Assembly (NCBI GenBank): GCA_043802685.1
Contig: JAZDKT010000078.1
Coordinates: 1 to 41,469, forward strand
Direction: 5' to 3'
Length of the DNA: 41,469 nt
DNA from: Candidatus Falkowbacteria bacterium
Lineage (GTDB): Bacteria > Patescibacteriota > Patescibacteriia > Patescibacteriales > VMTK01
Shown here in pieces: positions 20,701-38,870 of the stretch. Every line of letters begins with the position of its first letter. The stretch's first letter is position 1. The notes below the pieces were generated by a model that saw nothing but the letters and a program-made list of their open reading frames with translations, was not told where the DNA came from and did not search any database. The translations under genes and the position numbers were made by a program.

Positions 20701-20856
20701 TTGCGCGATACTATTGAGGCGCCAATTAATATAAGCGAGAAAGAAGCGCAAAAAATCGCTTTGGAGAGTGATAAGATTAAAAAGTGGACGAACGGCAAAA
20801 AAATTATTAAAGTGATATTTGTTAAGGGGAAACTAGTGAATATTGTAATAAAATAA
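17728..20856 (+). CDS. leuS: leucyl-tRNA synthetase with several insertions, including an alpha/beta-hydrolase domain
   Basis: HIGN (HIGH-type) motif, CP1 editing-domain TTRPDTLFGATY, YKLRDWCISRQRYWG, and KMSKS (KMSKSKGN). At 1042 aa it is about 200 aa longer than typical bacterial LeuRS. Confidence 0.92.
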   Translation: MDNYNHQKIEKKWAEKWVKDKTFTPDLKKAKNPYYALFMFPYPSAEGLHIGNFYAFTCVDVMAKYKKLQGKDVFEPIGFDAFGMHSENYALKINETPRKMLNRTIANFRNQLSSAGLGCDWTREVDTTDPEYYKWTQWIFAKLFEKGLAYQKEALLNWCPGCKTVLADEQIENGVCERCKTAPEKKIMKQWFFRITAYAQRLLDGLETMDWSDITKHAQRNWIGRSEGAMIKFEVRSKKLEVKKIIEVFTTRPDTLFGATYFVMSPEHPLVEKITSPEQKKEVEKYIKKTGAKSDLERAEAKEKTGVFTGAYAVNPVNNEKIPVWIADYVLMGYGTGAIMAVPAHDERDFEFAKKYGLPIRQVVAGKTQKHKNTKTQKHCLIIHGSPRCDKSKDTDYTPDNIKHWLGWLKKRLENNNYKVYNPQMPTPWEPDYQEWKKQIDKLDINENSVIVGHSAGGAFAVRWLSENKKKIDKLILIAAGKTITDDNKRLHNFYDFKINQNIKNRVNKIIIFVSEDEKKYRIASAKLYQKELGGELQILKDRGHFTVAASPINKEFPELLEEILKQECFAGDGININSDFLNGLTTKEAKEKIIQWLEENELGKGTVNYKLRDWCISRQRYWGPPVPIVYCNKCGVQAVPEKDLPVELPEMEKGWEPAGDGRGPLAKVNKFMKTTCPKCGGPAEREPDVMDNFLDSAWYYFRYISPRDNKNIFDKKLSKKWLPVDLYVGGNEHAVLHLMYTRFIAMAFHDLGLIDFDNPFKKFRANGMILKDGKKMSKSKGNVVSPEEYGAKVGYDALKTYLLFLGPLNEDRSFSDAGVQGAKRWMERIDRLKEKIHPVKYVSPRETASWQRGKLDGGLKLPSVANSFNGVKNNYEDDKKIIKKLHQTIKAVTDDFEDQKYNTAVARLMELTNSLSAEKNISGKTWEKFLILIAPFAPALAEELWSSFAKATADESKKCKQSIFNQRWPKHNPKLIKDDIINLVIQINGKLRDTIEAPINISEKEAQKIALESDKIKKWTNGKKIIKVIFVKGKLVNIVIK
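18826..18864. repeat. tandem 8-mer array ACACAAAA inside leuS
   Basis: aaaacacaaaaacacaaaaacacaaaaacacaaaaacac encodes ...KTQKHKNTKTQKH... Confidence 0.9.
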
Positions 20857-20903
20857 ATTGTTAAATTGCTCAATTGTTAAGCGGAGAAGATTTTGAAAAA
20901 CAA

Positions 20904-22115
20904 ATGAAGACAATAAAAGAAGAAAAAATCCCCATAAAAATATGGCTGGACGATATTGAGCCGGGCGCGGAAAAGCAGGCAAGAAATATCGCCAATCTGC
21001 CCGGAGCATTCCACCACATCGCCATTATGCCTGACGCCCATGTGGGCTATGGCATGCCTATCGGCGGAGTTTTAGCCACTGAATATATAATCGCGCCCAA
21101 CGCGGTGGGAGTTGATATCGGCTGCGGCATGATTGCCGTAAAAACTTCTATCAGGGAAATTGACGAATATTCTTTAAAACAAATTTTAAATCAGCTGCGC
21201 GGAAACATACCAACCGGCTTTACGCACCATAAACAGGCGCAAAGCTGGGAAGGGTTTGACAGGGCGCCGGATGTTCCTGTAATACAAAAAGAGCTTGATT
21301 CCGCGCGCAACCAGATTGGCACATTAGGCGGAGGCAACCATTTTTTGGAAATTTTACGGGAAATTGATGATTCAAAATGGCAAATAAAAAGCAATGGCAA
21401 TGTTTGGCTGATGCTTCACAGCGGCTCCCGCAATTTCGGCTATAAAACAGCGAATTTTTTCCATAGAAAAGCCAAGCAATGCTGTGAAAGTAATAACATA
21501 AAATTGCCTGACAAGGACTTGGCTTTCTTAAAATTAGATTCCCAAGACGGGCAAGATTATTGGCAAGCCATGAATTATTGCCTGGAATTCGCCCAAGCTA
21601 ACCGCGATTTAATGGCAAAGCGCTTCATGGATATTTTTAGCAATATTACCAACTGTGCATTTATAAACTTTGCCCTGGAGCGCGGCTATAAAAGTGAAAT
21701 TAAAGAAAAATATATCAGCATCCACCACAACTACGCGGCAAAAGAAAGCCATTTCGGGAAAGAAGTTATTGTCCACCGCAAAGGCGCGACGCGCGCCTTT
21801 GCCGGCCAGATTGGAATAGTTCCCGGAAGCATGGGAGCGCCAAGCTTTATTGTAGAAGGACTGGGCAATCCTGAAAGCTTTATGAGCTGCGCGCATGGAG
21901 CCGGCAGAGCAATGGGTCGGCGGGAAGCCAATAAAAAATTAACAAAAGAGCAGGCCGACCAAGCGATTAAAGGAATAGTTTTCGCCGGCTGGCAGGGTAA
22001 ATTTGACGAAGCGCCGCAAGCTTACAAAAATATTGAACAAGTGATAAAAAACCAAAGCGATTTGGCAAAGCCCATAGTCAAATTAAAGCCGATGGCTGTT
22101 ATGATAGGACAATAG
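20904..22115 (+). CDS. rtcB: RNA ligase RtcB
   Basis: PDAHVGYGMPIGGV, GGGNHF, SGSRNFG, HHNY and CAHGAGR motifs. The start is placed at the ATG at 20904 (MKTIKEEKIPIKIW) because the track TTG at 20874 lies inside a repeat word. Confidence 0.9.
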   Translation: MKTIKEEKIPIKIWLDDIEPGAEKQARNIANLPGAFHHIAIMPDAHVGYGMPIGGVLATEYIIAPNAVGVDIGCGMIAVKTSIREIDEYSLKQILNQLRGNIPTGFTHHKQAQSWEGFDRAPDVPVIQKELDSARNQIGTLGGGNHFLEILREIDDSKWQIKSNGNVWLMLHSGSRNFGYKTANFFHRKAKQCCESNNIKLPDKDLAFLKLDSQDGQDYWQAMNYCLEFAQANRDLMAKRFMDIFSNITNCAFINFALERGYKSEIKEKYISIHHNYAAKESHFGKEVIVHRKGATRAFAGQIGIVPGSMGAPSFIVEGLGNPESFMSCAHGAGRAMGRREANKKLTKEQADQAIKGIVFAGWQGKFDEAPQAYKNIEQVIKNQSDLAKPIVKLKPMAVMIGQ

Positions 22116-22116
22116 A

Positions 22117-22292
22117 TCGCATAACGCATAACTCGTAACGCATAACGACCTGTCTTATTAACTCACCTGACACGCAAACTTTACAATACTTTACTTTAAA
22201 AAAATTTATTAGTTTTTAAATACAATAATTAGAAGCTTTAATTCCACAACTCGTTACGCGTTATGCGTTATGCGTTATGCGTTATGCGTTAC
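22117..22292. repeat. GTTACGC/GTTATGC-family inverted arrays flanking an AT-rich spacer
   Basis: cgcataacgcataactcgtaacgcataacg (about 22117-22148) faces ctcgttacgcgttatgcgttatgcgttatgcgttatgcgttac (about 22250-22292). Confidence 0.85.
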
Positions 22293-23429
22293 TTCAACGG
22301 CAATTTATCCCAAGGTTTTGTCGCCTTGTTTTCCGGCAGAATGATCCAATTCGCCGCCGGCGGCTTGATTGGCTTGTTTCTGCCGATTTTTTTATTAACC
22401 AAGCTAAACTATCAAGTTGAATATGTATTTTTGTATTATATCGCCGGCCATGTAATTTATCTCTTAATCCTGCCGATAGGGGCTCAGCTTTTAAATAAAA
22501 TAGGCCTGCGCCGCTCCCTTCGGCTTAGCGTGATTATGGACGGGGCGTTTTATACCTGCCTCTTCTTTTTGGACAAAAATCCTAATCTATTTTTAATATT
22601 ATCCGTGGTTGCCTTAACTTTTTCTCGCATGCTGTTTTGGCTGCCTTTTCATACTGATTTCGCCAAGTTCACGGACAAGCGTAACAGAGGCAAGGAAGTA
22701 AGCTTGATTTGGGCTACTCACTCGTTCTTAAGCGTACTTATGCCGATAGCCGCCGGATTTTTAATAATGCGGTTTGATTTTGACATAGTTTTTGTTATCG
22801 CGATAATTCTTTACTTATCAGCCGGCATCCCGTTTTTAGCGCTTCCCAGAACACACGAGAGTTTTAGCTGGGGAATTTTGGAAACCTGGAAAAAATATTT
22901 TGCGAAAGAGAATAGAAAGCTTATTCTCGCGAACACGGCCAATGGCGCGGAAAGCTCTGTCGGACTGATTATATGGCCTATTTTTATTTGGCAAATATTT
23001 AACGGCAATTACTTGGAAGTTGGCGCGATATCATCATTAATCATCTTTGTTTCTATTATTCTTCAACTAATCGCGGGGAAATATACCGATCTTTTTAATA
23101 AAAGAAAGATGCTGCATTGGGGAACCGCGCTATACGCCATTGGCTGGCTGGGAAAAATATTCGTCTTAACGGCATCTCAAGTTTTTTTTATCGGAACATA
23201 CCATGTTTTCACGAAAATTTTCAAAGACACGCCTTTTGATACATTAAATTATGAAATGATGGCTGACCGCGGACATTATGTTGATGAATATACTGTTTTA
23301 AAAGAAATAGCCGTTCAAATGGGAAAAATACTGATGCTGATTTTTGCCATTTTAGTGGCTTTAAACTTCGGGCTTAACTGGACTTTCGCCTTGGCGGCCG
23401 TTGCCTCGCTTTTTATTAATTTGATGTAA
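22263..23429 (+). CDS. MFS-type multi-pass transporter, substrate unknown
   Basis: About 12 hydrophobic segments. Start uncertain (22263, 22284 or 22341): the first two ATGs are provided by the GTTATGC repeat array itself. Confidence 0.55.
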   Translation: MRYALCVMRYFNGNLSQGFVALFSGRMIQFAAGGLIGLFLPIFLLTKLNYQVEYVFLYYIAGHVIYLLILPIGAQLLNKIGLRRSLRLSVIMDGAFYTCLFFLDKNPNLFLILSVVALTFSRMLFWLPFHTDFAKFTDKRNRGKEVSLIWATHSFLSVLMPIAAGFLIMRFDFDIVFVIAIILYLSAGIPFLALPRTHESFSWGILETWKKYFAKENRKLILANTANGAESSVGLIIWPIFIWQIFNGNYLEVGAISSLIIFVSIILQLIAGKYTDLFNKRKMLHWGTALYAIGWLGKIFVLTASQVFFIGTYHVFTKIFKDTPFDTLNYEMMADRGHYVDEYTVLKEIAVQMGKILMLIFAILVALNFGLNWTFALAAVASLFINLM

Positions 23430-23544
23430 ACACTCAAATCTACAAATAGCACTCAAATCTACGAATGCAATGCAAATCTACAAATAAAAACTCGCGCTTA
23501 AAAATAGCAAACGAGTTTTACAAAGCAAAATGTCGCTTTAAATA

Positions 23545-23847
23545 TTATCTTGAAGCGCTAATCACGACATCTAATTCAGCATCCGGAGCGCAAACGGTAA
23601 TTCGGCCATTGGTACTTTTGGCTATATGATAACCAGCCCCATTTGTGGTAGCACCGCTTGGATCATAAGGCATTGAGACCAGATATGTTTCATCGGTGGT
23701 TAGCGCGGAAAGGTCAACAATACTAGTGCAAACGCCTCCGGTTTTACATATTTCATTCGTTGCAGTGCCGGAGCAGTCGGCTGATGTAGGAATATTGGCG
23801 GGAAGAGTTCCGGTATTATCAACAGCATACTGATGCGCCGCGTTCAA
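23545..23847 (-). pseudogene. pilin-like C-terminal globular fragment lacking the N-terminal hydrophobic helix
   Basis: The pattern NAAHQYAVDNTGTLPANIP.....C.........C....C ... YH looks like the variable head of CPR type IV-pilin-like proteins. The frame is closed by a TAA 4 codons upstream of the TTG start and there is no FTLIE-type leader. Weak call. Confidence 0.3.
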
Positions 23848-23886
23848 ATTTCCATTAACTTATGCGGCTTCGCCTACTTTAAATTT

Positions 23887-24252
23887 TTAAAAGTCCGCTT
23901 TCTCTTTAATAGCTTGGGCTTCCACAGACATAAGGCATTGGCCATTAATCATACCGCCTCGTTCAATACTTAAAATCTTACATTTAATGCCGCCCTTTAT
24001 CCACCCTGTTTTAGTGATGTGTAATTTTTCTTTCGCCTCAACATTACCTTCTGCCTTGCCAGCTACAATAATGCTGTTAGCCTTAATGTCAGCCTTGACC
24101 ATGGCCGACTTACTAATCTTAACATTTTTAGTATTTTCAATCATGCCATCTATCTTGCCGCTCACAACCAAATCTGCCAGGGATGATAATTTTCCCTCAA
24201 GTTTGGCTGAAGAATCAATAATGGTAGTGGAATATTTATTTTTTCCAAACAT
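23887..24252 (-). CDS. bactofilin (DUF583) family cytoskeletal protein
   Basis: Repetitive beta-helix pattern IDSSAKLEGKLSSLADLVVSGKIDGMIENTKNVKISKSAMVKADIKANSIIVAGKAEGNVEAKEKLHITKTGWIKGGIKCKILSIERGGMINGQ. Confidence 0.75.
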   Translation of the reverse strand: MFGKNKYSTTIIDSSAKLEGKLSSLADLVVSGKIDGMIENTKNVKISKSAMVKADIKANSIIVAGKAEGNVEAKEKLHITKTGWIKGGIKCKILSIERGGMINGQCLMSVEAQAIKEKADF

Positions 24253-24306
24253 ATCTTGGTTTCCAGAATCTAACGCAACACTATGTAAAAGCTAATAATT
24301 GATTTA

Positions 24307-24618
24307 TTACTGTTTAGTATTGAATTTAAGCTGTTTTTCCGGCTTTTTCGCCATCTTCCTTGCCCTAACATAATCTTCTTCTATCTCTATCTTTTTGGCT
24401 CGCGAACTTAAATAAGAATCGGTTTCCCACCAATCAATTCCCATTTCCTTAGCTTTATCCACTGAAGCTATCATTAACCTAATTTTAATTGTGAGCAACT
24501 CCACATCAGCAAGTTTAATCTGGATGTCGCCGGCAATAACAATGCCTTTGTCTAAAACGCGCTCTAAAATATCAGCTAAATTCGTAGCTTCTATACCATG
24601 GCTAATTTGTTCTGACAT
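24307..24618 (-). CDS. GvpA-family minor gas vesicle protein (GvpJ/GvpM/GvpS-like)
   Basis: LADILERVLDKGIVIAGDIQIKLADVELLTIKIRLMIASVDKAKEMG is the GvpA/J/M core (alpha-beta-beta-alpha) signature. Confidence 0.75.
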   Translation of the reverse strand: MSEQISHGIEATNLADILERVLDKGIVIAGDIQIKLADVELLTIKIRLMIASVDKAKEMGIDWWETDSYLSSRAKKIEIEEDYVRARKMAKKPEKQLKFNTKQ

Positions 24619-24662
24619 AAATTTTTTTTAATATTTATAATTGTTTAGTCCTAATAATTTTA

Positions 24663-25238
24663 TTACATTAAATTGCCCAGGGGTCCTAAATCTAAATTCA
24701 ATTCTTCATCTTCAATTCCAAAAACCGTTTTTAGCTCCTGCATTTTCTTCTCCATGGCTTTAAAAGTCATTCCTAACTTTTGAATTTCCGTATTAGAAAG
24801 AGATCCTTTTTGCATCCGCCTAATAACCTCTTTTTCCATTAACCTCCTTAATAACTCCACGAGAGTTAAAACTAATTTTGCTATGCCTTGTTCCGCTTTT
24901 TGGGGATTATCAGCATCAATGAGCTTGGGAATACTTGCTTCTGCCCTCTTTATTTCTTGCTCCAGCTTGGCAATATATTCTAAATCTTCCTTGGTTGGTT
25001 CTCGGCTGGGATAATAATCAGTCCCGGCGCTTTTCCAATTTTTACCGGACATTTCCTCTACTTTAGAAATAGAGGTTAGAAGAACTCTTAATCCTAAATA
25101 TATAAGATCTACATCAGCTACTCTTATTGCTACATCCCCGTTTATCACAGCCCCTTTTTCAAGAACTTTATCTAAAGCATCAATAAGAGTTACTCGCTGT
25201 TCTTTTGGTTTGGATAAAATTATTAGTGTATTTGCCAT
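24663..25238 (-). CDS. apparent fusion of a GvpJ/M-like (GvpA-family) domain and a GvpK-like domain
   Basis: aa ~15-62, TLIDALDKVLEKGAVINGDVAIRVADVDLIYLGLRVLLTSISKVEEM, is the GvpA-family core. aa ~113-175, QKAEQGIAKLVLTLVELLRRLMEKEVIRRMQKGSLSNTEIQKLG, is the GvpK signature (GLA.LVLT.VELLR.L.E+QA.RR...G.L). Confidence 0.7.
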   Translation of the reverse strand: MANTLIILSKPKEQRVTLIDALDKVLEKGAVINGDVAIRVADVDLIYLGLRVLLTSISKVEEMSGKNWKSAGTDYYPSREPTKEDLEYIAKLEQEIKRAEASIPKLIDADNPQKAEQGIAKLVLTLVELLRRLMEKEVIRRMQKGSLSNTEIQKLGMTFKAMEKKMQELKTVFGIEDEELNLDLGPLGNLM

Positions 25239-26071
25239 TTAATAAAATTGTAAGGCGGCCATGGGCCGCTATACTCAAAATTAAAACCTTTAGATTTATA
25301 TTCTTTATTTAATTTATTAATTTCTCTTGCAAAGTCTTTTAATTTTTCTTCTGAAATAAGAAAAATCGCATTTAAAATCATGGGCAAAGATTTACCTGTC
25401 AATTCTTTTTCTAAAATTTTACCTTTGGTTCCAGCAACCGCGCATTCTTTTAAATTTCTAAAAAAACTGTCAATATAATTTTCCAAAGCTCTGTCTGCTT
25501 CCCTTAAAACAGCATCATCTATCTGCTTTTGCATAAAATATGCCGTTCCTTCGGGAAGCAGGGCTATTTCTGTTTCTTTTTCCAGAACCACCGGACTAAC
25601 TCTTTTAACTTCATTACTAAAAGTTTGGCGGTTTAAATACGCCTTTACCGACCACTCTTGTTTTCCTGATAAATTTCTTAGATTTTCTTTGAATTTAAGG
25701 TAATATGTTTTAAGCATTTCCTTTATTTTTTCTTCGCTGTTAAAAATAGCGCCGAATTTCATGGGAATTGCCTCTTTTAATCTTTTATTTTTAAAGGGAT
25801 TCTTTTCTGCTGGAAAAGGAGAAAATTGAAATTCCATCGCTTCCTCTATTACCTGCTCATGAATTTGAGCTTTTTCTTTTACCCATTTTAAATTTTCTTG
25901 CGCTTTATTTTGAATTTCTTTTGAGCTGAATTCCTTTAAAGAAACATTGCTAACCACTGCTTCTAAATCCCTGAAAAAGACAGTAAAAACTTGACCCCTA
26001 TCAATTCCTTCTGCGGAAAATTTGGAATTAGTTTTTGCTCTAACGCAATAGAGATATAATCCCTGTTTCAT
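25223..26071 (-). CDS. GvpF/GvpL family protein
   Basis: N-terminal GLYLYCV start, the A.VS pattern (LEAVVSNV), and the C-terminal FEYSGPWPPYNF motif, as in GvpF/L. Confidence 0.8.
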   Translation of the reverse strand: MKQGLYLYCVRAKTNSKFSAEGIDRGQVFTVFFRDLEAVVSNVSLKEFSSKEIQNKAQENLKWVKEKAQIHEQVIEEAMEFQFSPFPAEKNPFKNKRLKEAIPMKFGAIFNSEEKIKEMLKTYYLKFKENLRNLSGKQEWSVKAYLNRQTFSNEVKRVSPVVLEKETEIALLPEGTAYFMQKQIDDAVLREADRALENYIDSFFRNLKECAVAGTKGKILEKELTGKSLPMILNAIFLISEEKLKDFAREINKLNKEYKSKGFNFEYSGPWPPYNFIKWQIH

Positions 26072-26085
26072 AAAGTTTGAATAGC

Positions 26086-26394
26086 TTATTCTTCGCTGCT
26101 GATTCCAGTATCTACTCTTTTTCGCATTTCTTTTCGCTCATAGCCAAGTAAATTGCCTTTTGCATCTAGCCTAATGTTATAAATTCCTAACACATCCATC
26201 CCGTCCGGGATAGATTTCTTTTCAACAATTTCAACTTTAACTACCCATTCTTCGCCTTCTTTTTTAAATCCTATCCCGGCTGGCGAGGAAAAACCGGTTA
26301 AATCAGCCAGCTGTTTTTTTGCTTTCTCAACAAGCTCTTTCGGCTCAAGATTTGATTTTACATCATTAGAAATGTTCTTTATTGTTTTTGTCAT
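26086..26394 (-). CDS. gvpO: gas vesicle protein GvpO
   Basis: AKKQLADLTGFSSPAGIGFKKEGEEWVVKVEIVEKKSIPDGMDVLGIYNIRLDAKGNLLGYERK parallels haloarchaeal GvpO (A+EQL.ELTG ... GW.V.VEVVE+.R.PD..DV...YEV.LD..GE..GY.R). Confidence 0.75.
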   Translation of the reverse strand: MTKTIKNISNDVKSNLEPKELVEKAKKQLADLTGFSSPAGIGFKKEGEEWVVKVEIVEKKSIPDGMDVLGIYNIRLDAKGNLLGYERKEMRKRVDTGISSEE

Positions 26395-26418
26395 AATAAT
26401 ATAAATTTAATAAATTAT

Positions 26419-26652
26419 TTATTCTCCTATTTTTTCTAAAATCTCTAATCTCTCTAAAATTTCCTCTTCTTCTTTTTGATATTCTGCTTCAGTAATTTCT
26501 TCCATTTCCAAACGCATTTGAATATCCAAAAGCTCTCTCTTGAGTTTTTCAGGAGTATCTGTTAATTCTTCTGCCACCATATCATTAATCTTATGAACAA
26601 CCCCCATAAATCCTCTGGCCGGGAGCAGTAATAAATCATCTATAATAAACAT
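26419..26652 (-). CDS. gvpG: gas vesicle protein GvpG
   Basis: MFIIDDLLLLPARGFMGVVHKINDMVAEEL followed by an acidic coiled coil matches GvpG (MF..DDLL..P...L......). Confidence 0.75.
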   Translation of the reverse strand: MFIIDDLLLLPARGFMGVVHKINDMVAEELTDTPEKLKRELLDIQMRLEMEEITEAEYQKEEEEILERLEILEKIGE

Positions 26653-26655
26653 AAA

Positions 26656-28665
26656 TTATATTCCGTATAATATTTTAGAAAAGCTATGCAATGAATCAAT
26701 TCCTCTAATATCATGCGGTAATAAAGGAACTAAAATTAAATTCTTCAAGGGATATTGTTTTTTAATTATACCCAGATATTTTTCTTGACCTTTTCTTTTG
26801 GCTAAACAGAAATTGCATTTGGAAGCAGGATTTATAAAATTGGCAATAATATAATTATAATTAATATTCATGCTTTCTAAAGATCCGTCCAAATCTTCCA
26901 TTTCTCTTATACCCATCTCCTCCGGAATGGTAATCATTAAAAATTCTGTTTTCGCGGAGCCAAATAAAATTTTCTGAATTTTTCTAATATCTCTGGATAA
27001 ATTTACTGTTTTTTGAGCAATTCCTTCTAATTTTAATCCTTGATATTTGCGAAGTATTTTAAAAATACTTTTAAGCCATTCTCTAACCAAGCCGGGAAGT
27101 TCTAAGAATCTAAGCAAATGGCCGGAAGCGGCTGAATCCAAAACATAAATATCATATTTGCTCCCACCCGCCAAATCCATAACTTTTCTTAAAGCCATTA
27201 GCTCTTCAAGCCCTGGCGGAGAAAGTTCCATCAACTCTTCCATAACCTGCTGATCGTAAACCACTTCTGCTCCCGGTCCTGTAAACTTATTAAATAACTC
27301 CTTAATACTCTCTTTATATTCATCTTTAAAATCTCTAAGACTTTTTTGAGTATCTATTTCTATGGCAAAAAGGTTATTAAAACCTCTGATAGAAACTGCT
27401 TCCGCGGCCAAGGGAATGTCTTGATCAAAAATATTGGAAAGAGCATGAGCCGGATCAGTGGTGGTAATAAGAATTTTTTTTTCTTTATGCTTTTTAGCCA
27501 GTGCCATAGCCGTAGCTGCCGCTATTGAAGTTTTGCCCACTCCTCCTTTCCCGCCGCAGATGACAAAGCTTAAATCCTTTTTTAAAAACTTTGCCATTTT
27601 GCCTTGAGGAATTTCTGGAAATTCAGGCAATTTTTTTGGCAAAATAATCTCAAACTCCTTCTCCGCGAATAAAATCCGAGCGTACTCATTTAAAGAATCT
27701 TGACCCCTAATTTCAGCGGGGAAAAGTGGCATCTTCAAAATCTGATAATCTTTTCCGCCCGAGACGGATCCGCCTTTGGCGGAAAATTTTTCTTCAATCA
27801 TTTTCAGATATTTTTCTTTTTCTTTTATTCTGGAAGCGCAAAGCGAGCATTCTCCTTCAACTGTTGCCATGCGATTAGCAATAATACTTTTTACTGAAAT
27901 TTTCATTATATCCAAATCTTTAACTAATTCCTCTGTCTCTAAAATACTCATTGGTTCGGGAATAGTTACTGGCACAAATTCAGTTGTTTCCTGATTTTTT
28001 AAAAGTTTTTCCACTCTTTCTATATCAGCCAGGGTCTTTGTTAAAAATTTATCACACTCATCATCAATATATTTTCTTCTTATCCGCTTCATAATAAACC
28101 GATGTTTTGCCATCATCAGGTCTGCCGCTTTTATCCATCTTTTCATCGCTTGAGGCAGGGATAAAAGAATCTTAGTGTGCCCGGTAGGAGCGGTATCAAG
28201 AATAATCAGATCATATTCTTTTTCTAAAAGCTCAGCAATTTTAATAATAGCCATTACTTCATCCATGCCTGGCATAGCCAGAGAAGTAAATTGTTCTATG
28301 TCCTCACTGTCAAGATAAGTTCCCCGATCAAGTAAAATTTTTATAGTTTCTGAATGTTGCTTGCGAAAATCTTCCATTAATTCTTTAGCCTCCATCTCAT
28401 AAGCCCAGATATTGTCTTGAATTTTAGTAATTTTATTGCCAACCTCTACATTAAAACTATCGCCAATGGAAGGGGCCGGATCAGTAGAAACTATTAAAAT
28501 TCTTTTGGTCTTGTATTTTTGGCCTAAGTATAAAGCGGTTGCGCAAGCGCAAGTAGTTTTGCCGCTGCCGCCCTTGCCGCCAAAGACAATAAACTTCAAT
28601 CTGTTATTAACAAGAAACTGATTTTTTGCCCTATTAGAAATTTTTGCTGAAATTTCCTTTTTCAT
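26656..28665 (-). CDS. tandem-domain ArsA/Get3-family P-loop ATPase
   Basis: Two deviant Walker A loops (FGGKGGSGKTT and CGGKGGVGKTS). The ArsA signature DTAPTGHT is present in half 1 and is degenerate (DSAASGHL) in half 2. Confidence 0.8.
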   Translation of the reverse strand: MKKEISAKISNRAKNQFLVNNRLKFIVFGGKGGSGKTTCACATALYLGQKYKTKRILIVSTDPAPSIGDSFNVEVGNKITKIQDNIWAYEMEAKELMEDFRKQHSETIKILLDRGTYLDSEDIEQFTSLAMPGMDEVMAIIKIAELLEKEYDLIILDTAPTGHTKILLSLPQAMKRWIKAADLMMAKHRFIMKRIRRKYIDDECDKFLTKTLADIERVEKLLKNQETTEFVPVTIPEPMSILETEELVKDLDIMKISVKSIIANRMATVEGECSLCASRIKEKEKYLKMIEEKFSAKGGSVSGGKDYQILKMPLFPAEIRGQDSLNEYARILFAEKEFEIILPKKLPEFPEIPQGKMAKFLKKDLSFVICGGKGGVGKTSIAAATAMALAKKHKEKKILITTTDPAHALSNIFDQDIPLAAEAVSIRGFNNLFAIEIDTQKSLRDFKDEYKESIKELFNKFTGPGAEVVYDQQVMEELMELSPPGLEELMALRKVMDLAGGSKYDIYVLDSAASGHLLRFLELPGLVREWLKSIFKILRKYQGLKLEGIAQKTVNLSRDIRKIQKILFGSAKTEFLMITIPEEMGIREMEDLDGSLESMNINYNYIIANFINPASKCNFCLAKRKGQEKYLGIIKKQYPLKNLILVPLLPHDIRGIDSLHSFSKILYGI

Positions 28666-29553
28666 ATCTTTAAATGCAATTCTACAAAATTAAAAGCAGG
28701 AATAGGGCCAATATATATAAACTTAATTCTCTTATTGTACTTTTTGATTAAAACATGCACTCTTTTATCAAACTCTCTTTCATTTTTTTTTTGAAACCAA
28801 GAAAGCATAACTGAAAATCATTGAATCTCTCATCGGTTCTAAAAATCTTATCAACTCTCTTTCTTTAAACTTTACCGCTAATTCTTTTAAAGATTTCAAG
28901 AGCTCTCCGGCTTCCCTTTCCCTTTTAGAGTCAACTGCCTTTTGGATTAATTCACCTACGCCGGCAATTCTAAATTGATGGGGATTTTTCTGGGCGTTTC
29001 TTTTTGCAATTTGAATTTCTTGATTCTCCTCAACTATTTCTTGAAAAATACTTGGCATATCTTTCCAAAATGCCCTAATGCCCAATTCTACTCTCCCTTC
29101 CACTATTGGAAATGTTTCTAAAAATTCTTTTCTTTTTGGCTTTAATATTTTTTCTTTAACATCTTCCGCGCTCTTGGCCACTGTGCCAAAACGAACCGGT
29201 AAAACATCATATCCTTGTTTCATCACTTCTTCAATAACCTTTTGATGGCGGGTTAGGTGTTCTTTAATAAAAGAATACTGATCTTTTGCCGTGTCAGTGA
29301 CTGCCATTGCCAATCCTCCTTTATTAATAGTATATACTTCTTTTCCTTCCTGCCCCGTTAGATATTTGTTCTCTTGATTCTTTTTATTCGCTCTTGTAAT
29401 ATCTAACGGGGCTTGCCGCAAAATTTTAAACTTTTGGGGCTTGCTTTCTTTAATAACACAATAAAGATATTTACCCTGATCTGAGTCTGATTGCCCCGCA
29501 GGCCTGTCATTTGGGACTCTGATTTGGGATTTTCCTTTTGCTTCAGCGGCCAT
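28662..29553 (-). pseudogene. GvpF/GvpL family gene interrupted by a +1 frameshift in an A10 run (possibly rescued by slippage)
   Basis: Frame 0 (29553..28780) ends ...IFSYAFLVSKKK-TGA. The +1 frame continues ...NEREFDKRVHVLIKKYNKRIKFIYIGPIPAFNFVELHLKI-TGA. This supplies the conserved GvpF/L C-terminus and ends in an ATGA overlap with the ArsA-like start at 28665. The start is placed at MAAEAKGK (29553), downstream of the preceding gene's stop. Confidence 0.7.
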
Positions 29554-29584
29554 AATTTTAATAATAATTGCTTTATAAAAATCT

Positions 29585-29929
29585 CTATTCTTGCGAAGTT
29601 GGTTTAGCCACAACAATGACCTGTTTTATAGCCACCACCAATCCGGCAGCTGCTATAAAAGCGATAAAATTTTCCAAAATTGAAGCGACTGCCAATGTTA
29701 ATTTTCCAAGCTGTAAACCGCCGACTCCAATTAAAAGCAAGGTGATCACGGCCACAAGAAACGGAATGCTTTCTTTTTCTTTTACATTTAAAAATCCAAC
29801 AATTAAACCTAAAACAAACAGAATAACTAATAGATACGGAATAGCGGCAAAGCCAGCCAGCACTGCAAACGCTATGCCTCCGATTAAAGCCCAGCGGCCA
29901 ATAGTTGTAAGATTATATTTTAATGCCAT
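29585..29929 (-). CDS. small 4-TM membrane protein, hypothetical
   Basis: Four hydrophobic helices (WALIGGIAFAVLAGFAAIPYLLVILFVLGLIVGF...FLVAVITLLLIGV...FIAFIAAAGLVVAI). Confidence 0.5.
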   Translation of the reverse strand: MALKYNLTTIGRWALIGGIAFAVLAGFAAIPYLLVILFVLGLIVGFLNVKEKESIPFLVAVITLLLIGVGGLQLGKLTLAVASILENFIAFIAAAGLVVAIKQVIVVAKPTSQE

Positions 29930-30092
29930 ATTTTTGAGATATTATTTGCCCTGCATTTTTTAAGCATTAAAATGAATAGACTTGCCGCGCAATTAGTCTC
30001 GCAACGCAATTTTATAATGCGAACTCTATAAAGAGTAATGCTTAAAAGATAAGTAGGGGTTATGAATTATAATAAAATTCGACCTTTAAAAA

Positions 30093-31160
30093 TTATTTAA
30101 TAATTAAAGAATTTCTTACATCTTCTTCCTTAAAAGAATATCTTTGATTCCTGTTTTCTCCAAAAAAACTGCCACAGCTTTTGCAATAACTTTTTAGAAT
30201 ACTATAAGCGCGAACTATTTTTTTCATTTGTTCTGCTGTTTCCTGATTATCTTGATGCTTATCCGGATGATATTGATGGGAAAGGGCATAATAAGCCTTT
30301 TTAATTTCTTCGGGACTAGCTTCCTCGCCCAGGCTCAATAATTTTCTTGCTTTATTTATTATTTCAAAATTACCTAAACTAAGATTAATATTAACAAAAC
30401 TATAGGGGGGCATTGGGCCAATATACTTAAACCTTAATTTCCCTTCGTATTTTTTACCCAATTCTTGCATTTTACTATCCAATTCAAACTCTCTGGACTT
30501 CTCTATTAAGAAAGAAAAGTTGGCTATCATGTCCTCGCTGATTAATTTATTTAAGGTGAAGTCATGAGCCATGATTCTTAAGAATGCTTCAATGTTCTTG
30601 ATATTAGTTTGCTTATAAGCTTCTGCCTGCCGCTGGATTAGTCTGCCTAACTTCAATTTAAGCGGCAGACCCAGAATACTTGTTTTGACGGACAACTGCT
30701 GTCTTAGCCCCTGAATTTCTGAATTAGTGTTAACTAATTCTTCAAGCAGCTTTTTTTGATCCCACCAGACTTGAACCGCAAACTCAACCTTGCCTGCTGT
30801 TGTTTTTAAAGCTGTTTTAAATTGAATATAAGCTTTCGCTAAAATACATTTTATTTCTTCATTATTAGGAGCAATAATCCCAAAAGCCATTGGCGCAACA
30901 TTATAATCTTTCATTATTTCTTCATTCACTTGCTGGTGGATGGCAATATGCCTTGTTAGTTCTTTTTTATCTAAACGATCAAAATTAATAACCGGGGTAT
31001 CTGAAACTGCCGCTGCTATATCTTGATAATTGAGAATGTTGATAACTTGATGATTAATTCCAATATAGCTAAGGCCGCTGGCATTGGCTTGGCCGAAAGC
31101 ATCGCGGGCGGCTCTTTTATCTTTATTCTGCTCAATTACGCAATAAATATATTTCCCCAT
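30093..31160 (-). CDS. GvpL/GvpF family protein fused to a C-terminal J-domain
   Basis: GKYIYCV start and the FKYIGPMPPYSF motif (GvpF/L). aa ~265-325, EEIKKAYYALSHQYHPDKHQDNQETAEQMKKIVRAYSILKS, has an intact HPD tripeptide (J-domain, nt about 30186-30368). Confidence 0.75.
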   Translation of the reverse strand: MGKYIYCVIEQNKDKRAARDAFGQANASGLSYIGINHQVINILNYQDIAAAVSDTPVINFDRLDKKELTRHIAIHQQVNEEIMKDYNVAPMAFGIIAPNNEEIKCILAKAYIQFKTALKTTAGKVEFAVQVWWDQKKLLEELVNTNSEIQGLRQQLSVKTSILGLPLKLKLGRLIQRQAEAYKQTNIKNIEAFLRIMAHDFTLNKLISEDMIANFSFLIEKSREFELDSKMQELGKKYEGKLRFKYIGPMPPYSFVNINLSLGNFEIINKARKLLSLGEEASPEEIKKAYYALSHQYHPDKHQDNQETAEQMKKIVRAYSILKSYCKSCGSFFGENRNQRYSFKEEDVRNSLIIK

Positions 31161-31264
31161 TTTTATCTAGTTAGAAAATTTTATTAGACTATGCCAAATT
31201 ATCCATAGCAAGTATTTGCAGATATCGCGAGCAATAGCGAGCCAATATCCGCAAGAGCATCCCA

Positions 31265-32341
31265 TTAATTTGTTCTTTTTCTATCAGCAATAGCGGCGAT
31301 TAACGCTCCTTTGGCAACAGTATAAAGCGGATGCGGAGCCATCCTTACTTCCTTTACTTTTAAAGGAAAACTCGTTTTCCCAAGTATCTCTTTAAACCTT
31401 TCAATAAATCCCTGCGGATTTGCCGTACCTCCTGAAACAATTATCGGAATGGGAGTTTCAAATTCAGGAATTTTGCCCTTTTCTTCAACCTCTTTTTTTA
31501 TTTGATCCAAAACATATTCAATCAGGTGATCATAATAAATAGAAAGGGCATGCTCAGTTTTAGTCATACTGCTTTCGCTCTTTTTAAGATTTAAAAAGTT
31601 TTCCTTAAAGGTAGTAATTTTGCTGATTGGCTCATTGGTAACAATGGCAACTTGTTCATCAATCCAGTCCCCGGCTTTAGCCACGCTGAAAGAAAACACC
31701 GGCGCAGACATTAAGGATAGGCAGACATTAGCCATTCCGCCGCCAAATGATATGCCCATGCCCGTAAAATTATCTTCTGCTAATTCAGAAAAAATTACCG
31801 CTAAACCCTCGTTCAAGGGCTTTGCTTGGTACCCCCATTTTTCAAGAAATCCTTTTATTATATTTTGATGGTAAATATTATCAAAATCCGCGTCAATTGG
31901 AGGGCCGGGAACAGAAAAATAACAAATTTCATTTTTTTCAGCAGGCGGCTCTAAAACGCTTTTTATTATCAATTCAATAATTGGCAATGCTTCGGTTTCT
32001 TTAGCGCTAATTACTCCGCTCTTTAGCGGTCTTCTGGTGTTGCCGCCAAAAACATTAGCAAACTTCATAGCATCGCTTCCCACCACATAAATTTTATCTT
32101 GACCCAGGACATATTTGACATTACTTTTTTCTAATATCCCTTGGGTAAATTCAGAATATTCAACATCGAAAAAAGCATCTCTTTGAGCCCTAAAACTTAC
32201 CTGTGAATTTATTTTTTGAGCGCAGTAAATAAAAGCGGTGCCGACATCTAATCCTTTGCCCATTTGCGGTAAAACCAATTTATTTGTTTTTGTACGATTC
32301 TCTTTAGCCATAGAACCGCGGGCATGTTGTTGTTTTGTCAT
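31265..32341 (-). CDS. actin-fold (MreB/ParM/Hsp70 superfamily) ATPase
   Basis: Phosphate-1 GLDVGTAFI, the MreB-like RPLKSGVIS, phosphate-2 GISFGGGMANVC, and the adenosine motif IIVSGGTANPQGF. Confidence 0.7.
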   Translation of the reverse strand: MTKQQHARGSMAKENRTKTNKLVLPQMGKGLDVGTAFIYCAQKINSQVSFRAQRDAFFDVEYSEFTQGILEKSNVKYVLGQDKIYVVGSDAMKFANVFGGNTRRPLKSGVISAKETEALPIIELIIKSVLEPPAEKNEICYFSVPGPPIDADFDNIYHQNIIKGFLEKWGYQAKPLNEGLAVIFSELAEDNFTGMGISFGGGMANVCLSLMSAPVFSFSVAKAGDWIDEQVAIVTNEPISKITTFKENFLNLKKSESSMTKTEHALSIYYDHLIEYVLDQIKKEVEEKGKIPEFETPIPIIVSGGTANPQGFIERFKEILGKTSFPLKVKEVRMAPHPLYTVAKGALIAAIADRKRTN

Positions 32342-32411
32342 ACTTTTTATTTAATACTTATTTTTTCCTCTTCTTTTTCGACCTTTTCGCCCGGTTAAAA
32401 ATTTACTATTC

Positions 32412-32873
32412 CTATTTATTTCTCATCTTCTCAAAATAATTTCTAACCGGGTTTAAAAAACAAGCCGCCCTCTCAATACTTTGGCCTAAATTTAATTTTT
32501 TCTCTTCCGGCTCAAATTTATTCTCTGGATTTTTACTGCTAACCTTTTTTGCTAAATACTTAAAGTTATCCTCTAACGGCTTTACCTTTAATTTTTTAGG
32601 GAAATAATAAATTACTTTTTCTATATTTTTTTCTTTTTTAAAAACTTTCGGCTTTATTAAACATCTACATTCCAGTTCTTTTATTCCTTTAAAAGCGATC
32701 TTATACCAATCCCGTTTTCCTTTAATCGGCTTAATCCATCCTTTTTTAAATAAACAATCGCAAATATAACGAATGTAATCAATGCCGAATTTTGTCTGGC
32801 TGGAAATTAATTTAATATTGGATTCTTCTTTATTTTCCCAAATTTTTTTTAAAACTTTTAATTCACTATTCAT
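32412..32873 (-). CDS. small putative winged-helix protein, paralog of 36124..36462
   Basis: The N-terminus LKVLKKIWENKEESNIKLISSQTKFGIDYIRYICDCLFKKGWI aligns with RVLEIIWDWGGEASVNIITREANISIDYARLICESLARESCI. Function unknown. Confidence 0.4.
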   Translation of the reverse strand: MNSELKVLKKIWENKEESNIKLISSQTKFGIDYIRYICDCLFKKGWIKPIKGKRDWYKIAFKGIKELECRCLIKPKVFKKEKNIEKVIYYFPKKLKVKPLEDNFKYLAKKVSSKNPENKFEPEEKKLNLGQSIERAACFLNPVRNYFEKMRNK

Positions 32874-33273
32874 ATAACCTAGAAGACTTTAATTTATCTT
32901 TTGCTTGATCCAATATATCAAAATTCTCTTTTTCTGCCATTCTTAATTCATCTATAAACTCCTTGCTTTTGCTTTGCAGCTTTTTTAATAACATTATCCT
33001 CATCTCTAAATTTTTTTCTAATTCCTTAACTTCCTGATAGGTCTTTTCTAAAGCTATTTGTTCCCGCGCTATTTCCTTTTGATGCTCATTTATTTTTTTA
33101 ATTAAATCAATGTTCTCTTCTTTTACTTTTGAATTAATTTGTTGCGCTTCTTCCTTTAAGGGAGAAAGCGGTTTTCTGCTCATAGCAAACTCTATCTGGG
33201 GCGCTTTGTTTAATTCTTCCCCTGCCTCCTTTAATCCTTCTATGATGCTTTTGGGGCTTGCATTTGATTCCAT
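32866..33273 (-). CDS. coiled-coil protein, hypothetical
   Basis: 135 aa with heptad-rich K/E sequence. It overlaps the 3' end of the AAA+ gene by 34 nt and the next gene by 8 nt. Confidence 0.4.
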
Positions 33274-35450
33274 ATTATTTTAAAATGATTATTAGTAATT
33301 TTAAATTTTTGGCAGTTTTTTAAACTTTTTAACCCGACCGCTTCACTGCCTGCCCGCAAAGCCTTAGTAAGCGGGCGCGAATCATCGCGGATAAATTTAA
33401 CAAATTCTCTAATAGCTAAAATTGAAGCTTGCTTGCAAATGGCTTCAATATCAGATCCTACTAATCCTTTGCTTTCTTTAGCTAAATTTTCTAAATTCAC
33501 ATCTTTAGCCAATGGCTTGCCTCTTGTATGAATTTTAAATATCTCCAACCTTGTTTTCCCATCCGGCTTTGGCACCTCTAAAATAAAATAAAAGCGGCCG
33601 GTTCGGCGCAATGCAGGGTCAATCAAATCCAAGCGGTTGGTAGCTCCAAGGATTACAACCCCTTTAAGCTCTTCAATGCCATCAAGTTCAGTTAAAAATT
33701 GGCTTACTACTCTCTGAGTTACAGAGGAGTCAACGTTTTGGCTGCGAGCAGGAACCAAACTGTCCAGCTCATCAAAAAAAACAATGCAAGGACTGGCTTG
33801 CTTAGCTTTTTTAAAAACTTCCCTTACTGCTTTTTCAGATTCTCCTATGTATTTTGATAAAAGCTCAGGACCCTTGACAGAAATAAAATTTACGCCGCAT
33901 TCAGACGCTACTGCTTTGGCTATTAAAGTCTTGCCTGTTCCGGGAGGGCCGTAAAGCAAAATTCCTTTAGACGGACTGGTTTTGGTATAATCAAAAAGTT
34001 TGCTATATTTCAATGGCCACTCAATGGTTTCTTTTAAGGTCTGCTTTATTTGTTCCAAACCTCCCACATCCTTCCACCTAACATCAGGAATTTCAGTAAA
34101 AATTTCTCTTAAAGCTGACGGCTCAACTTCTTTTAATGCTTCTATAAAATAATCCGCGGTTACTTCCATCTCTAAAAGTTTTTTATAAGGAATATATTCT
34201 TTAGCAAATTCAATCTCCGGCATGATTTTTCGCAGAGCCGACATGGCTGCCTCTCTAACCAAAGCTTCTAAGTCTGCCCCCACAAAGCCATGGGTTATTT
34301 CAGATAGCTTGTCTAAATTAACATCTTCTCCCAGGGGCATGCCTCTAGTATAAATTTCCAATATTTCTTTTCTGCCATTTTTATCAGGAATACTAATGGC
34401 AATCTCTCTATCAAATCGGCCCGGTCTTCGCAATGCCGGATCCAGGGTATTGGGAATATTAGTGATTCCAATAACTACCAAATTGCCCCTTGATTCCAAG
34501 CCATCCATTAAAGCCAGCAATTGGGCAACCACTCTTCTTTCCACTTGTTTTTCTCCGCCCATATCCTCTCTTTTAGGGGCAATGCCGTCAATTTCATCTA
34601 TAACTAAAATGGCAGGGGCATTAGCTTGGGCATCCTCAAATACTTCTCTTAATCTTGCTTCTGACTCCCCATAAAATTTGCCCATGATTTCAGGCCCGGA
34701 AATAGAAGTAAAATAAGCATCAGTTTCGTTAGCTACCGCTCTGGCAATCAAAGTTTTGCCGCAACCAGGGGGTCCGTATAATAAAACTCCCTTGGGAGGA
34801 TCTATGCCTAATCTCTCAAAAACCTCGGGATATTTTAAGGGAAGTTCAATCATCTCTCTAATCCTGCCGATTTCTTTTTTAAGTCCTCCGATGTCTTCAT
34901 AAGTGACTCCTACTCCCTGCTTGTCTTTTGCTTCTCCCTTGATCTTGATTAAAGTAGCGGGAGTAATCAAAACAGCTCCTTGAGGGTCAGTAGCTTCCAC
35001 TAAAAAATCCTGGGATTTACTGCCAAAAAAGGTTACTCTTATTTTATTTCCTTTTAAAACCGGGGTGCCGTCTAATATTTTGGCCAAATATTCACTACTT
35101 TCTTGTTTTTTAAAAGATCCGTCTAAACTTAAAGGAGATAAAACTAAAGTATTAGCTTTCTCATAAGAAGTCTTTTGAATTTCAACCTTTTCATCTAAAC
35201 CTGTCTTAAGGTTGTCTCGCGCTATGCCATCTATTTGAACAATCTCTTTGCCGCGATCTTCTGAATAAGCGGGCATTAATTTGGCTACTACTTCTTTACC
35301 CTCCACTTTTAACCTAATTATATCTCCTGCATCTGCCTGAATTTTTGCAAAATATTCAGGGTCTACTCTGGCTATTGCCCTGCCCGCGTCCTTGCTCCGG
35401 GCTTCTGCTATCTTAAGAACTATTGATTTTGTTTGCGCTTTTTTAATCAT
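33240..35450 (-). CDS. Cdc48/VAT/p97-like double-ring AAA+ ATPase
   Basis: Cdc48-type N-domain ([22 protein letters not shown]...[11 protein letters not shown]). Two AAA modules carry Walker A GPPGCGKT and GPPGTGKT and Walker B ILVIDEID and IVFFDELD, with second-region-of-homology motifs. Confidence 0.88.
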
Positions 35451-35547
35451 AAATCATGAAACAATCCTTCGGCGTATTTATATTCGCATGCAGACATAAT
35501 TTGCGGCATTGGGATTATATCTGTGTGAATTAACCCGCTAACTTTTT

Positions 35548-36114
35548 CTAAAATATTTTTTTTAACTTCACTTTTAATATCCCGTTTTTAAAATCTATTT
35601 TACGGGACTGGAAATCTACGCTGTCCGGCAGTAAAATCTCTTTGGCATATTTCCTGTCTTGATTACCGGCTTCAATTATAAGAATGTCTTTCTTGAGATC
35701 AAGTTTAATGGCTTTTTCATCAATGCCGGGAAGTTCAGCGATAATTAAAATGTGATCCTTCTCGTTAAAAACATCAACTATCGGCTCTCTATTTTCCACA
35801 ACCTCAACTTCCTTTTTACCGGCTTTTTTTTCAACAGGCCGAATATTGCCAAAAGTTTGCACTCGCGGCCGGCCGCCAATACCGCTTCTTATTGAAAATC
35901 CATAAACCCCTTTAGCATCCTTTCCTTTTCCCAAACCCCTGATTTTTCCTTCTTTTCTAATCTCTCCCCCGGCTTCTTCAACTTTTTCCGCTAAATCAAT
36001 AAATTTCCCCAATCCCTTAATTAATCCTCCAACCAAAGGCAAATCTTCAAGCATCTCTAATTCTTCCCTTGCCTGATCAGTGTTCTTTTTTTCACTTTTT
36101 TTATATTTAACCAT
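35548..36114 (-). CDS. Hsp20/alpha-crystallin domain protein (GvpH-like position)
   Basis: The C-terminal alpha-crystallin pattern is VDVFNEKDHILIIAELPGIDEKAIKLDLKKDILIIEA......YAKEILLP..VD.....IDFKNGILKVKLKK. Confidence 0.7.
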   Translation of the reverse strand: MVKYKKSEKKNTDQAREELEMLEDLPLVGGLIKGLGKFIDLAEKVEEAGGEIRKEGKIRGLGKGKDAKGVYGFSIRSGIGGRPRVQTFGNIRPVEKKAGKKEVEVVENREPIVDVFNEKDHILIIAELPGIDEKAIKLDLKKDILIIEAGNQDRKYAKEILLPDSVDFQSRKIDFKNGILKVKLKKIF

Positions 36115-36123
36115 ACCCTAAAA

Positions 36124-36462
36124 TCAATAGTTTAGAATTAATTTTCCTTTTTTATCTTTACCTAAACCAAACCTACTCAGCCTTTCAGGAAGAACAATTT
36201 TTCTTGCCCCGTTAAAAAATTTTTGACTTCTAACGAGGTGAAGATTCCGGTCTTTTTTTCTTGCGGCTATTAACTTTCCTTTATCTTTTATATTGCACAA
36301 TTTGGAGCGCGAAAAATCAATACAACTTTCCCTTGCCAAGCTCTCGCAAATAAGCCGGGCATAATCAATACTAATGTTCGCTTCTCTGGTAATAATATTA
36401 ACTGAAGCCTCTCCTCCCCAATCCCAAATTATCTCTAAAACTCTTTGTTCATTTGTAGTCAT
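36124..36462 (-). CDS. small putative winged-helix protein, paralog of 32412..32873
   Basis: See the N-terminal alignment to 32412..32873. The C-terminal tail is KKGKLILNY. Confidence 0.4.
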   Translation of the reverse strand: MTTNEQRVLEIIWDWGGEASVNIITREANISIDYARLICESLARESCIDFSRSKLCNIKDKGKLIAARKKDRNLHLVRSQKFFNGARKIVLPERLSRFGLGKDKKGKLILNY

Positions 36463-36472
36463 AAATCTAATG

Positions 36473-36820: not shown

Positions 36821-36829
36821 AATTTTTAG

Positions 36830-37771: not shown

Positions 37772-37831
37772 TAAAATTTAGATGATTTTAGATAGAATAA
37801 ATTTGACCTTGAATGTCAAAATTTTTTATTT

Positions 37832-38838: not shown

Positions 38839-38870
38839 AAAGCTTTTATTATAAATATTTTAATATTTTT

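Follow-up and report, generated by a model that had tools for sequence, protein, structure and literature searches.

The window, the whole stretch of 41,469 nucleotides that was analysed, is a contig from the metagenome-assembled genome (MAG) of an uncultured groundwater bacterium that NCBI places in the Patescibacteria ('Ca. Falkowbacteria'). It encodes a complete, unusually elaborate patescibacterial gas-vesicle operon. On the same strand as the gvpF/L gene described here lie two more gvpF/L paralogues as well as gvpA, gvpN, gvpG, gvpO, gvpK and gvpJ-like genes. The operon lies in a 14-kb cassette that is near-identical between strains, and its flanks have diverged to 72-95% identity. This setting is more interesting than the frameshift itself. 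The features of the locus are as follows.

25223..26071, minus strand: third GvpF/L paralogue, 282 aa
26656..28665, minus strand: two-domain ArsA/Get3-family ATPase, 669 aa, immediately downstream of gvpF/L
28662..28665, minus strand: ATGA overlap in which the stop of the intact gvpF/L frame meets the start of the ArsA/Get3-type gene downstream
28662..28784, minus strand: +1-frame continuation by translation, 40 codons and a stop, NEREFDKRV...YIGPIPAFNFVELHLKI
28780..29553, minus strand: truncated GvpF/L open reading frame, 257 aa, ending ...AFLVSKKK (ATG at 29553, premature TGA at 28780-28782)
28783..28792, minus strand: A10 homopolymer (T10 on the plus strand), one base more than the A9 of all other assemblies read
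30093..31160, minus strand: GvpF/L paralogue fused to a DnaJ J-domain, used in the C-terminal comparison of the initial annotation

On the minus strand the coding sequence reads TTG GTT TCA AAA AAA AAA TGA, and the A10 run within it exceeds every other A/T homopolymer of the 41.5-kb window in length. An in-frame TGA directly follows the run, and the last 39-40 residues are lost. The 257-aa product is identical to the NCBI protein MFH0923739.1. After the run, the +1 frame translates as NEREFDKRVHVLIKKYNKRIKFIYIGPIPAFNFVELHLKI and terminates at 28662. The initial annotation had described a gvpF/L frameshift at A10 with a conserved C-terminus in the +1 frame, a stop in that frame that overlaps the ArsA-like gene as ATGA, and an uncorrupted downstream frame. 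Reading and translation bear out all three: the overlap is present at 28662-28665, and the codons 3' of the tract are undamaged, all 40 matching those of intact alleles.

The tract lengths proposed to restore the frame, A11 or A8, were wrong. Explicit translation of lengths 6 to 14 gives a full-length protein from A6, A9 and A12 only; A8 and A11 yield 267/268-aa products that end in ...MKESLIKECMF. The A9 allele is read as TCA AAA AAA AAT (Ser-Lys-Lys-Asn). It is uniform read support for A9, and not for A11 as had been suggested, that would reduce the frameshift to a consensus error.

When repaired to A9, the protein matches the Pfam family PF06386 (GvpL_GvpF) over positions 1-245 of 245, with E = 1.1e-54 and a score of 186 bits (cut-off 23.6). 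It scores below the NCBIfam equivalog cut-offs for both GvpF and GvpL, so it is assignable to the family but not to F or L specifically. By our own reckoning, the truncated product is without about the last 40 positions of the PF06386 profile. Six residues 3' of the shift (F278, Y280, G282, P283, P285 and F289) are invariant among 13 orthologues and both paralogues in the window. They form the block F-x-Y-x-G-P-x-P-x-x-x-F, which the A10 allele loses and which is present here in the +1 frame only. The alignment with the solved GvpF structure 4QSG_A runs to query residue 292 and to residue 252 of the 253 in that chain. Because the repaired protein matches PF06386 end to end and six invariant columns lie downstream of the shift, the similarity in the shifted frame is not coincidental, in agreement with the initial annotation. 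By homology, the continuation encodes the authentic C-terminal end of the GvpF/L fold. The likeness noted to the C-termini of both paralogues is also real, but in the J-domain fusion (30093-31160) the block ends the GvpF/L domain and not the protein.

Comparison with orthologous loci, which had been proposed as a check, was run. At 99-99.9% DNA identity, all 17 other distinct loci read across the tract have A9; they come from 17 assemblies that represent about 15 samples. Tract length thus differs in one of 18 assemblies, the window, and the other 17 are uniform. The truncated 257-aa product is on record from one contig, the window itself. Intact 296-aa alleles are found on 20-odd contigs, with 12-22 for P0122 (the range reflecting the table used), four for P0123 and one for P0001. 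In orthologues of 50-70% identity (14 GTDB loci), the run at the homologous site ranges from A4 to A9, in frame in every case. Most of them have the run broken by AAG or other codons, and just one other lineage has A9. Judged from these alleles, the ancestral and population-wide state is shown to be an intact 296-aa GvpF/L gene with A9. In practice, the species is best taken to have an intact GvpF/L gene (296 aa, A9), and the copy in this MAG should carry a flag as frameshifted or suspect.

The window's own lineage was sought by exact look-ups in a positional index of three of its proteins: CDC48 with I623/Y621, the T167 form of a GvpF/L paralogue, and the truncated GvpF/L itself. No other assembly of exactly this lineage that spans the tract was found by these means, and neither A9 nor A10 is independently confirmed in it; the A9-repaired protein of the window haplotype has no match in a collection of 15 billion proteins. 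The sibling contig L041 is 100% identical to the window over 37676-40206. It was set aside as a second witness because it ends at 37676, far from the tract.

The window has eight private SNPs over 24.0-37.8 kb, three synonymous and five non-synonymous. These counts are too small for a reading of relaxed selection, which was set aside. In the gvpF/L gene, the window has Thr75 (codon at 29330) and all 16 other assemblies that cover the codon have Ile75; threonine is the state of 10 of 12 distant orthologues. Because of the eight private SNPs and the threonine shared with these orthologues, the window is judged to be a real, separate lineage and not a noisy copy. Among 22 A/T runs of at least 7 in the common 14-kb gvp cassette (171 tract-by-assembly comparisons), the A10 tract is the sole difference in length. 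The six A/T8 runs inside the cassette have the same length as in other assemblies. A second A9 tract, at 27474-27482 in arsA, served as an internal control and is of equal length in the window and all 13 assemblies that cover it. No other split gene was seen among the genes examined in the window. With one difference in 171 comparisons and no other gene split, the contig is, on this evidence, not generally error-prone at homopolymers.

The frameshift is best explained as an incidental, non-programmed one-base expansion from A9 to A10, and we put the chance that it is a real replication slip at about even. Slipped-strand mispairing during DNA replication would have expanded the A9 run in TCA AAA AAA AAT, and the slip would have arisen in the lineage that dominates the one sample behind the MAG. 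The event is probably very young. That it is non-programmed follows from the site being always in frame in orthologues, at A4 to A9, and from a downstream sequence that folds no better than shuffles of it.

A sequencing or assembly artefact is a serious alternative, somewhat short of even likelihood. The organism would then have A9 and an intact gene, and the extra A would come from library stutter, a homopolymer miscall or a low-depth assembler path. The extra base sits where such an error would fall, in the window's longest run of A or T, and it is a singleton set against 17 of 17 other loci with A9, its truncated product appearing in no other assembly. The preserved downstream frame and coupling signal are predicted by an artefact as well. 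Assemblies from other samples often break up in this region, with contig ends at 29119-29230 and 37676, which points to mixed strains that share the cassette, a setting for local assembler errors. An error-prone platform is argued against by the absence of any other length discrepancy in the contig, including the arsA A9 tract and the six A/T8 runs. The MEGAHIT-style k141 name of L041 suggests short-read data, and at normal depth the true length should outnumber a minority stutter product and win the consensus. The private SNPs also mark an independent lineage, and a real slip could have taken place there. We lean slightly toward a real, very young mutation over a consensus error. Among the four options offered in the initial annotation, the comparison backs a recent event and a sequencing error, and the phase switch gained no positive support.

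If the slip is real, the truncated GvpF/L is probably non-functional or strongly impaired. Characterised gvp clusters cannot do without GvpF and GvpL, so gas-vesicle assembly should depend on this paralogue. With translation ending 115 nt upstream, arsA, whose start normally lies in the ATGA overlap, may be translated less well too. Full-length protein could still be produced in a small proportion, as leakiness and not by design. RNA polymerase slippage to A9 or A12 transcripts would provide it, or alternatively ribosome sliding on the AAA codons. The slippage rescue raised in the initial annotation survives solely as such low-level leakiness; the correction needed is -1 or +2. Two other ways around the stop were rejected. 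Reassignment of UGA (codes 4 or 25) conflicts with the intact alleles, which end in TGA at the ATGA, at the same position as the orthologues. A separate C-terminal piece started from the ATG at 28808 is unsupported: it lacks a Shine-Dalgarno-like sequence and, at 48 aa, is unlikely to complement.

A phase-variable contingency locus, in which slipped-strand mispairing at the A9 tract turns gas-vesicle formation ON and OFF and the window is the OFF state, is improbable. Were it true, an ultra-small Patescibacteria cell would be turning buoyancy off and on. A9 and A10 fall within the range of lengths in which homopolymer slippage is raised, and the TGA directly after the run in the A10 frame makes for a clean OFF state. 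Other disruptive alleles in the operon, each from a single assembly, are an A5 to A4 change at 29133 in the same gene (L007), Q637* in arsA (L021) and, at 28988, a junction with unrelated sequence (L042). Tract length is, however, invariant over the 17 other assemblies, and the tract is not conserved in orthologues, most of which interrupt it with AAG or other codons; only one other lineage has A9. Base frequencies, by our own estimate, predict about two A/T runs of at least 9 in 41 kb, and the A9 state gives two. The other disruptive alleles do not lie at repeats suited to reversible switching. They are also biased by ascertainment: the gene is over-sampled, the loci having been fetched by a search with gvpF/L, and recurrent disruption was set aside as evidence of selection. 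The fuller version, with a reversible A9 switch of buoyancy, the window as a dominant OFF population and the A5 to A4 and arsA Q637* alleles as recurrent selection against gas vesicles in some groundwater niches, is slightly less probable still. A phase switch is not supported.

Programmed recoding, in which A10 is the true state and full-length GvpF/L is made by designed transcriptional slippage or ribosomal +1/-2 frameshifting to give two products, is very improbable and is not supported. An A10 run directly before a stop resembles tssM1 of Citrobacter rodentium, which has an A11 run before its stop and mRNAs with 10-15 A's (PMC4256274). Ribosomes slide on AAA-lysine runs (PMC4363877). The run also has the length of a slippage site, at least 9 A or T in the coding strand. 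Against this, the out-of-frame arrangement is not conserved, as all other strains read (17 of 17 loci with A9) and all orthologues examined (14 GTDB loci) are in frame. The correction runs against the prevailing direction of slippage: in transcription, A/T runs most often slip by +1, with insertions prevailing (80% of them of a single nucleotide) and deletions rare at homopolymers (PMC5574713). There is no Shine-Dalgarno-like element 5' of the run, as no GGAGG-like element can be read in the upstream sequence AGTTATGCTTTCTTGGTTTC. There is likewise no stimulatory RNA structure 3' of it; the 93 nt downstream have a minimum free energy of -7.2 kcal/mol (z = +1.38 against shuffles) and fold no better than shuffled sequence.

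The preferred reading, a young slip from A9 to A10, makes the frameshift a routine singleton, and as such it matters little. If the A10 population is real and dominant, it would offer a modest natural experiment in how a CPR bacterium loses buoyancy.

Poly(A)-tract frameshifts partly rescued by polymerase infidelity have been reported from aphid and ant endosymbionts. Homopolymer frameshift pseudogenes and leaky alleles of such AT-rich, small-genome bacteria are like the window in their one-base change within at least 9 A's in a lysine-rich coding stretch, in their intact downstream frame and in the possible low-level correction by RNA polymerase slippage. The window differs in that its frameshift is seen in one assembly only, and in that the correction (-1 or +2) is in the less favoured direction; the slippage data are for Buchnera and E. 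coli (PMC5574713). Consensus errors at homopolymers in MAGs are likewise singleton indels that fall in the longest homopolymer and break an otherwise conserved gene, but the window's contig has no other discrepancy in 22 runs against up to 17 assemblies. In tssM1, a poly-A run also stands just before a premature stop, with an essential C-terminal domain in another frame. There, the interrupted state is fixed in the genome, neither product is dispensable and Yersinia has a comparable case, whereas the window is a singleton whose examined relatives are in frame. Natural and cultured gas-vesicle-negative mutants include IS-element insertions in the gvp genes of Halobacterium and in the gvp clusters of Microcystis and Planktothrix. 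These are, like the window, loss-of-function gvp alleles that segregate in near-identical clusters; they are mostly IS insertions or deletions, while the window's allele is a homopolymer slip known from its sequence alone.

The minus-strand open reading frame that begins with the ATG at 29553 reads ...TTG GTT TCA AAA AAA AAA TGA and stops at 28780-28782. Its A10 run is the plus-strand T10 at 28783-28792, and no A/T homopolymer in the window, which has a G+C content of 36%, is longer. Past the run, the +1 frame continues as NEREFDKRVHVLIKKYNKRIKFIYIGPIPAFNFVELHLKI* to its stop at 28662, where an ATGA overlap joins it to the following gene, which encodes an ArsA/Get3-type ATPase. Direct reading and translation of the minus strand thus bear out the frameshift and coordinates of the initial annotation, which had also proposed that A11 or A8 would restore the frame. 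This second proposal is wrong. When the gene was translated at tract lengths 6 to 14, the full-length protein came from A6, A9, and A12, and with A8 or A11 the product was 267/268 aa long and had an unrelated tail. The length at which uniform reads would mark the frameshift as a consensus error is therefore A9, not A11. UGA acts as a genuine stop codon in this Candidatus Falkowbacteria bacterium, and its reading as a sense codon was rejected: the TGA within the ATGA overlap terminates the intact alleles, at the position where the orthologues also end.

The shifted frame, proposed to encode the conserved C-terminus, is authentic GvpF/L sequence. The A9-repaired protein of 296 aa matches the Pfam profile GvpL_GvpF over positions 1-245 of 245 (E = 1e-54). 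In an alignment of 13 orthologues and the two paralogues in the window, the invariant columns 3' of the shift include F278, Y280, G282, P283, P285, and F289. In the solved GvpF structure 4QSG, the last aligned position, query residue 292, corresponds to chain residue 252 of 253. Together, these matches mean that the 257-aa product lacks the end of the fold.

The gene lies in a gvp operon on the minus strand (23545-40101) of a Patescibacteria/CPR MAG, and this operon is complete and unusually elaborate. Full-text literature searches did not turn up a paper in which gas vesicles are clearly tied to CPR bacteria.

Features of the gvp operon
39883-40101, minus strand: gvpA, first gene of the operon
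30093-31160: GvpF/L paralogue running on into a J-domain, aligned with the orthologues
26656-28665, minus strand: two-domain ArsA/Get3-type ATPase gene (arsA), adjoining gvpF/L through the ATGA overlap
25223-26071: GvpF/L paralogue, aligned with the orthologues
Gvp content: GvpN, GvpG, GvpO, a GvpJ/M-GvpK fusion, a GvpJ/A-like protein
GvpF/L content: three paralogues, one fused to a J-domain
Other content: DnaJ zinc-finger-like protein, Hsp20, CDC48-type double AAA ATPase, two-domain ArsA/Get3, Volactin-family actin, bactofilin

Immediately upstream of the operon, an XRE-type HTH gene (40831-41199) is flanked by two intergenic runs, G10 (40704-40713) and G16 (41403-41418). Such runs are very unexpected at 36% G+C, and the other G or C runs in the window are of 6 or fewer; they may be genuine contingency-type tracts within a regulatory region, or else artefacts of sequencing. 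On the plus strand, a leucyl-tRNA synthetase of 1042 aa (17728-20856) carries an alpha/beta-hydrolase domain (Ser_hydrolase, PF06821) inserted at residues 403-550, directly after the editing domain.

The 14.3-kb gvp cassette (23474-37816) has 99.5-99.9% identity among assemblies that come from about 15 samples. In the same contigs, identity falls to 93-97% in the low-coordinate flank (18808-23466) and to 72-76% in the high-coordinate flank (37924-39537). The boundaries are sharp and several contigs break at or near them, such as an ENA contig (L041) at 37676. The cassette looks like a recent horizontal spread or gene-specific sweep among diverged strains. At the end of the cluster, a 100-aa ORF (23545-23847, minus strand) with no convincing family match is hypervariable. 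Relative to five other assemblies, over 30 differences, compensating indels among them, are private to the window in a stretch of about 350 nt here, and the adjoining cassette is about 99.9% identical.

A search with the GvpF/L protein returned 183 homologues (E <= 1e-10). Those with names are mostly Patescibacteria MAGs, as are nearly all homologues at 50-70% identity. The truncated product is deposited as NCBI MFH0923739.1, a 'Candidatus Falkowbacteria bacterium' protein with the annotation GvpL/GvpF, and is found on a single contig, the window itself. Intact 296-aa alleles that differ by 1 to 3 residues occur on many contigs in NCBI, JGI, ENA, and Logan assemblies (P0122 on 12 to 22, depending on the table, P0123 on 4, and P0001 on 1). 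A9 is present in each of the 17 distinct loci fetched across the tract, whose identity to the window is 99-99.9%. Outside hypervariable 23479-23830, A10 is the sole private indel of the window in the shared cassette, and it is the sole length difference among 22 A/T runs of 7 or more in 171 tract-by-assembly comparisons. All 13 assemblies that cover the neighbouring A9 run of arsA (27474-27482) agree with the window in its length. A10 is a non-programmed, singleton A9-to-A10 slip, for which two trivial origins remain.

The first, to which we give roughly an even chance, is a real and very young mutation. It is favored because homopolymers elsewhere in the contig are clean, because the data are probably short-read, where the consensus should not fall to a stutter product, and because the contig represents a distinct lineage. 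Between 24.0 and 37.8 kb, the window has 8 private SNPs (3 synonymous, 5 non-synonymous). One of them gives its gvpF/L Thr75, the residue present in 10 of 12 distant orthologues; codon 75 is Ile in 16/16 other assemblies covering it. Random error would not be expected to bring back the ancestral Thr75. The window is a real, separate lineage. L041 is 100% identical to its upstream flank and ends well short of the tract. Exact protein look-ups found no other assembly of this haplotype across the tract, and look-ups in protein collections and indexes placed the truncated product nowhere else and did not find the A9-repaired form of the window haplotype. If the mutation is real, the function of this paralogue would be lost or strongly reduced, and arsA translation may be weakened through loss of the ATGA coupling.

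The second origin, a consensus error, is less probable and still quite plausible: the extra A falls in the longest homopolymer, the change is a singleton, and the frame 3' of the run is perfectly preserved.

Other disruptive alleles were found, each in a single assembly. In a JGI 3300014574 contig (L007), an independent gvpF/L frameshift, A5 to A4 at window position 29133, changes CCAAAAAG to CCAAAAG and gives a 144-aa product. Two contigs of JGI 3300013392, possibly the same project given the adjacent identifiers, break at this exact spot (one ends at 29135, the other starts at 29119). This allele is either a real variant or an error. One assembly (Logan SRR7079964) has arsA Q637* (CAA to TAA, near window position 26755), with loss of the last 33 residues. 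A 534-bp ENA contig (ERZ27247104) joins 127 nt of unrelated DNA, matching neither the window nor the fetched loci, to the 3' part of gvpF/L at 28988, with A9; either the contig is chimeric or the junction marks a structural variant or an insertion breakpoint. Because the loci were ascertained through gvpF/L, these alleles are no proof that the gene is specially targeted.

That the run is a phase switch is improbable, and the A10 arrangement has no sign of design. Orthologues have CCA AAA AAG AAT, TCA AAA GAT AAT, CCA AAA AAA ACT, and similar sequences at the homologous site, with A-runs of 4 to 9, in frame every time; TCA AAA AAA AAT GAA also occurs in L034, the sole other lineage with an identical site. 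By an estimate from base composition, 41 kb should contain about two A/T runs of at least 9, and the A9 state has exactly two. Across the window there are 57 runs of 7, 22 of 8, 1 of 9, and 1 of 10: counts drop about 0.4-fold per extra base up to 8 and collapse beyond, consistent with selection against slip-prone runs rather than recruitment. Programmed recoding is very improbable, with no Shine-Dalgarno-like element in the sequence 5' of the run and folding of the 93 nt 3' of it worse than shuffled sequence (z = +1.38).

Low-level rescue of expression by slippage could occur in principle. Genome-wide, insertions predominate at A/T runs, 80% of them of a single nucleotide, and deletions are seldom seen at homopolymers (PMC5574713); restoration from A10 needs -1 or +2, the less favored outcomes. 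Ribosomes are also documented to slide on runs of AAA-lysine codons (PMC4363877). In Citrobacter rodentium, tssM1 has an A11 run that yields mRNAs carrying 10 to 15 A's (PMC4256274). These data come from organisms outside Patescibacteria.
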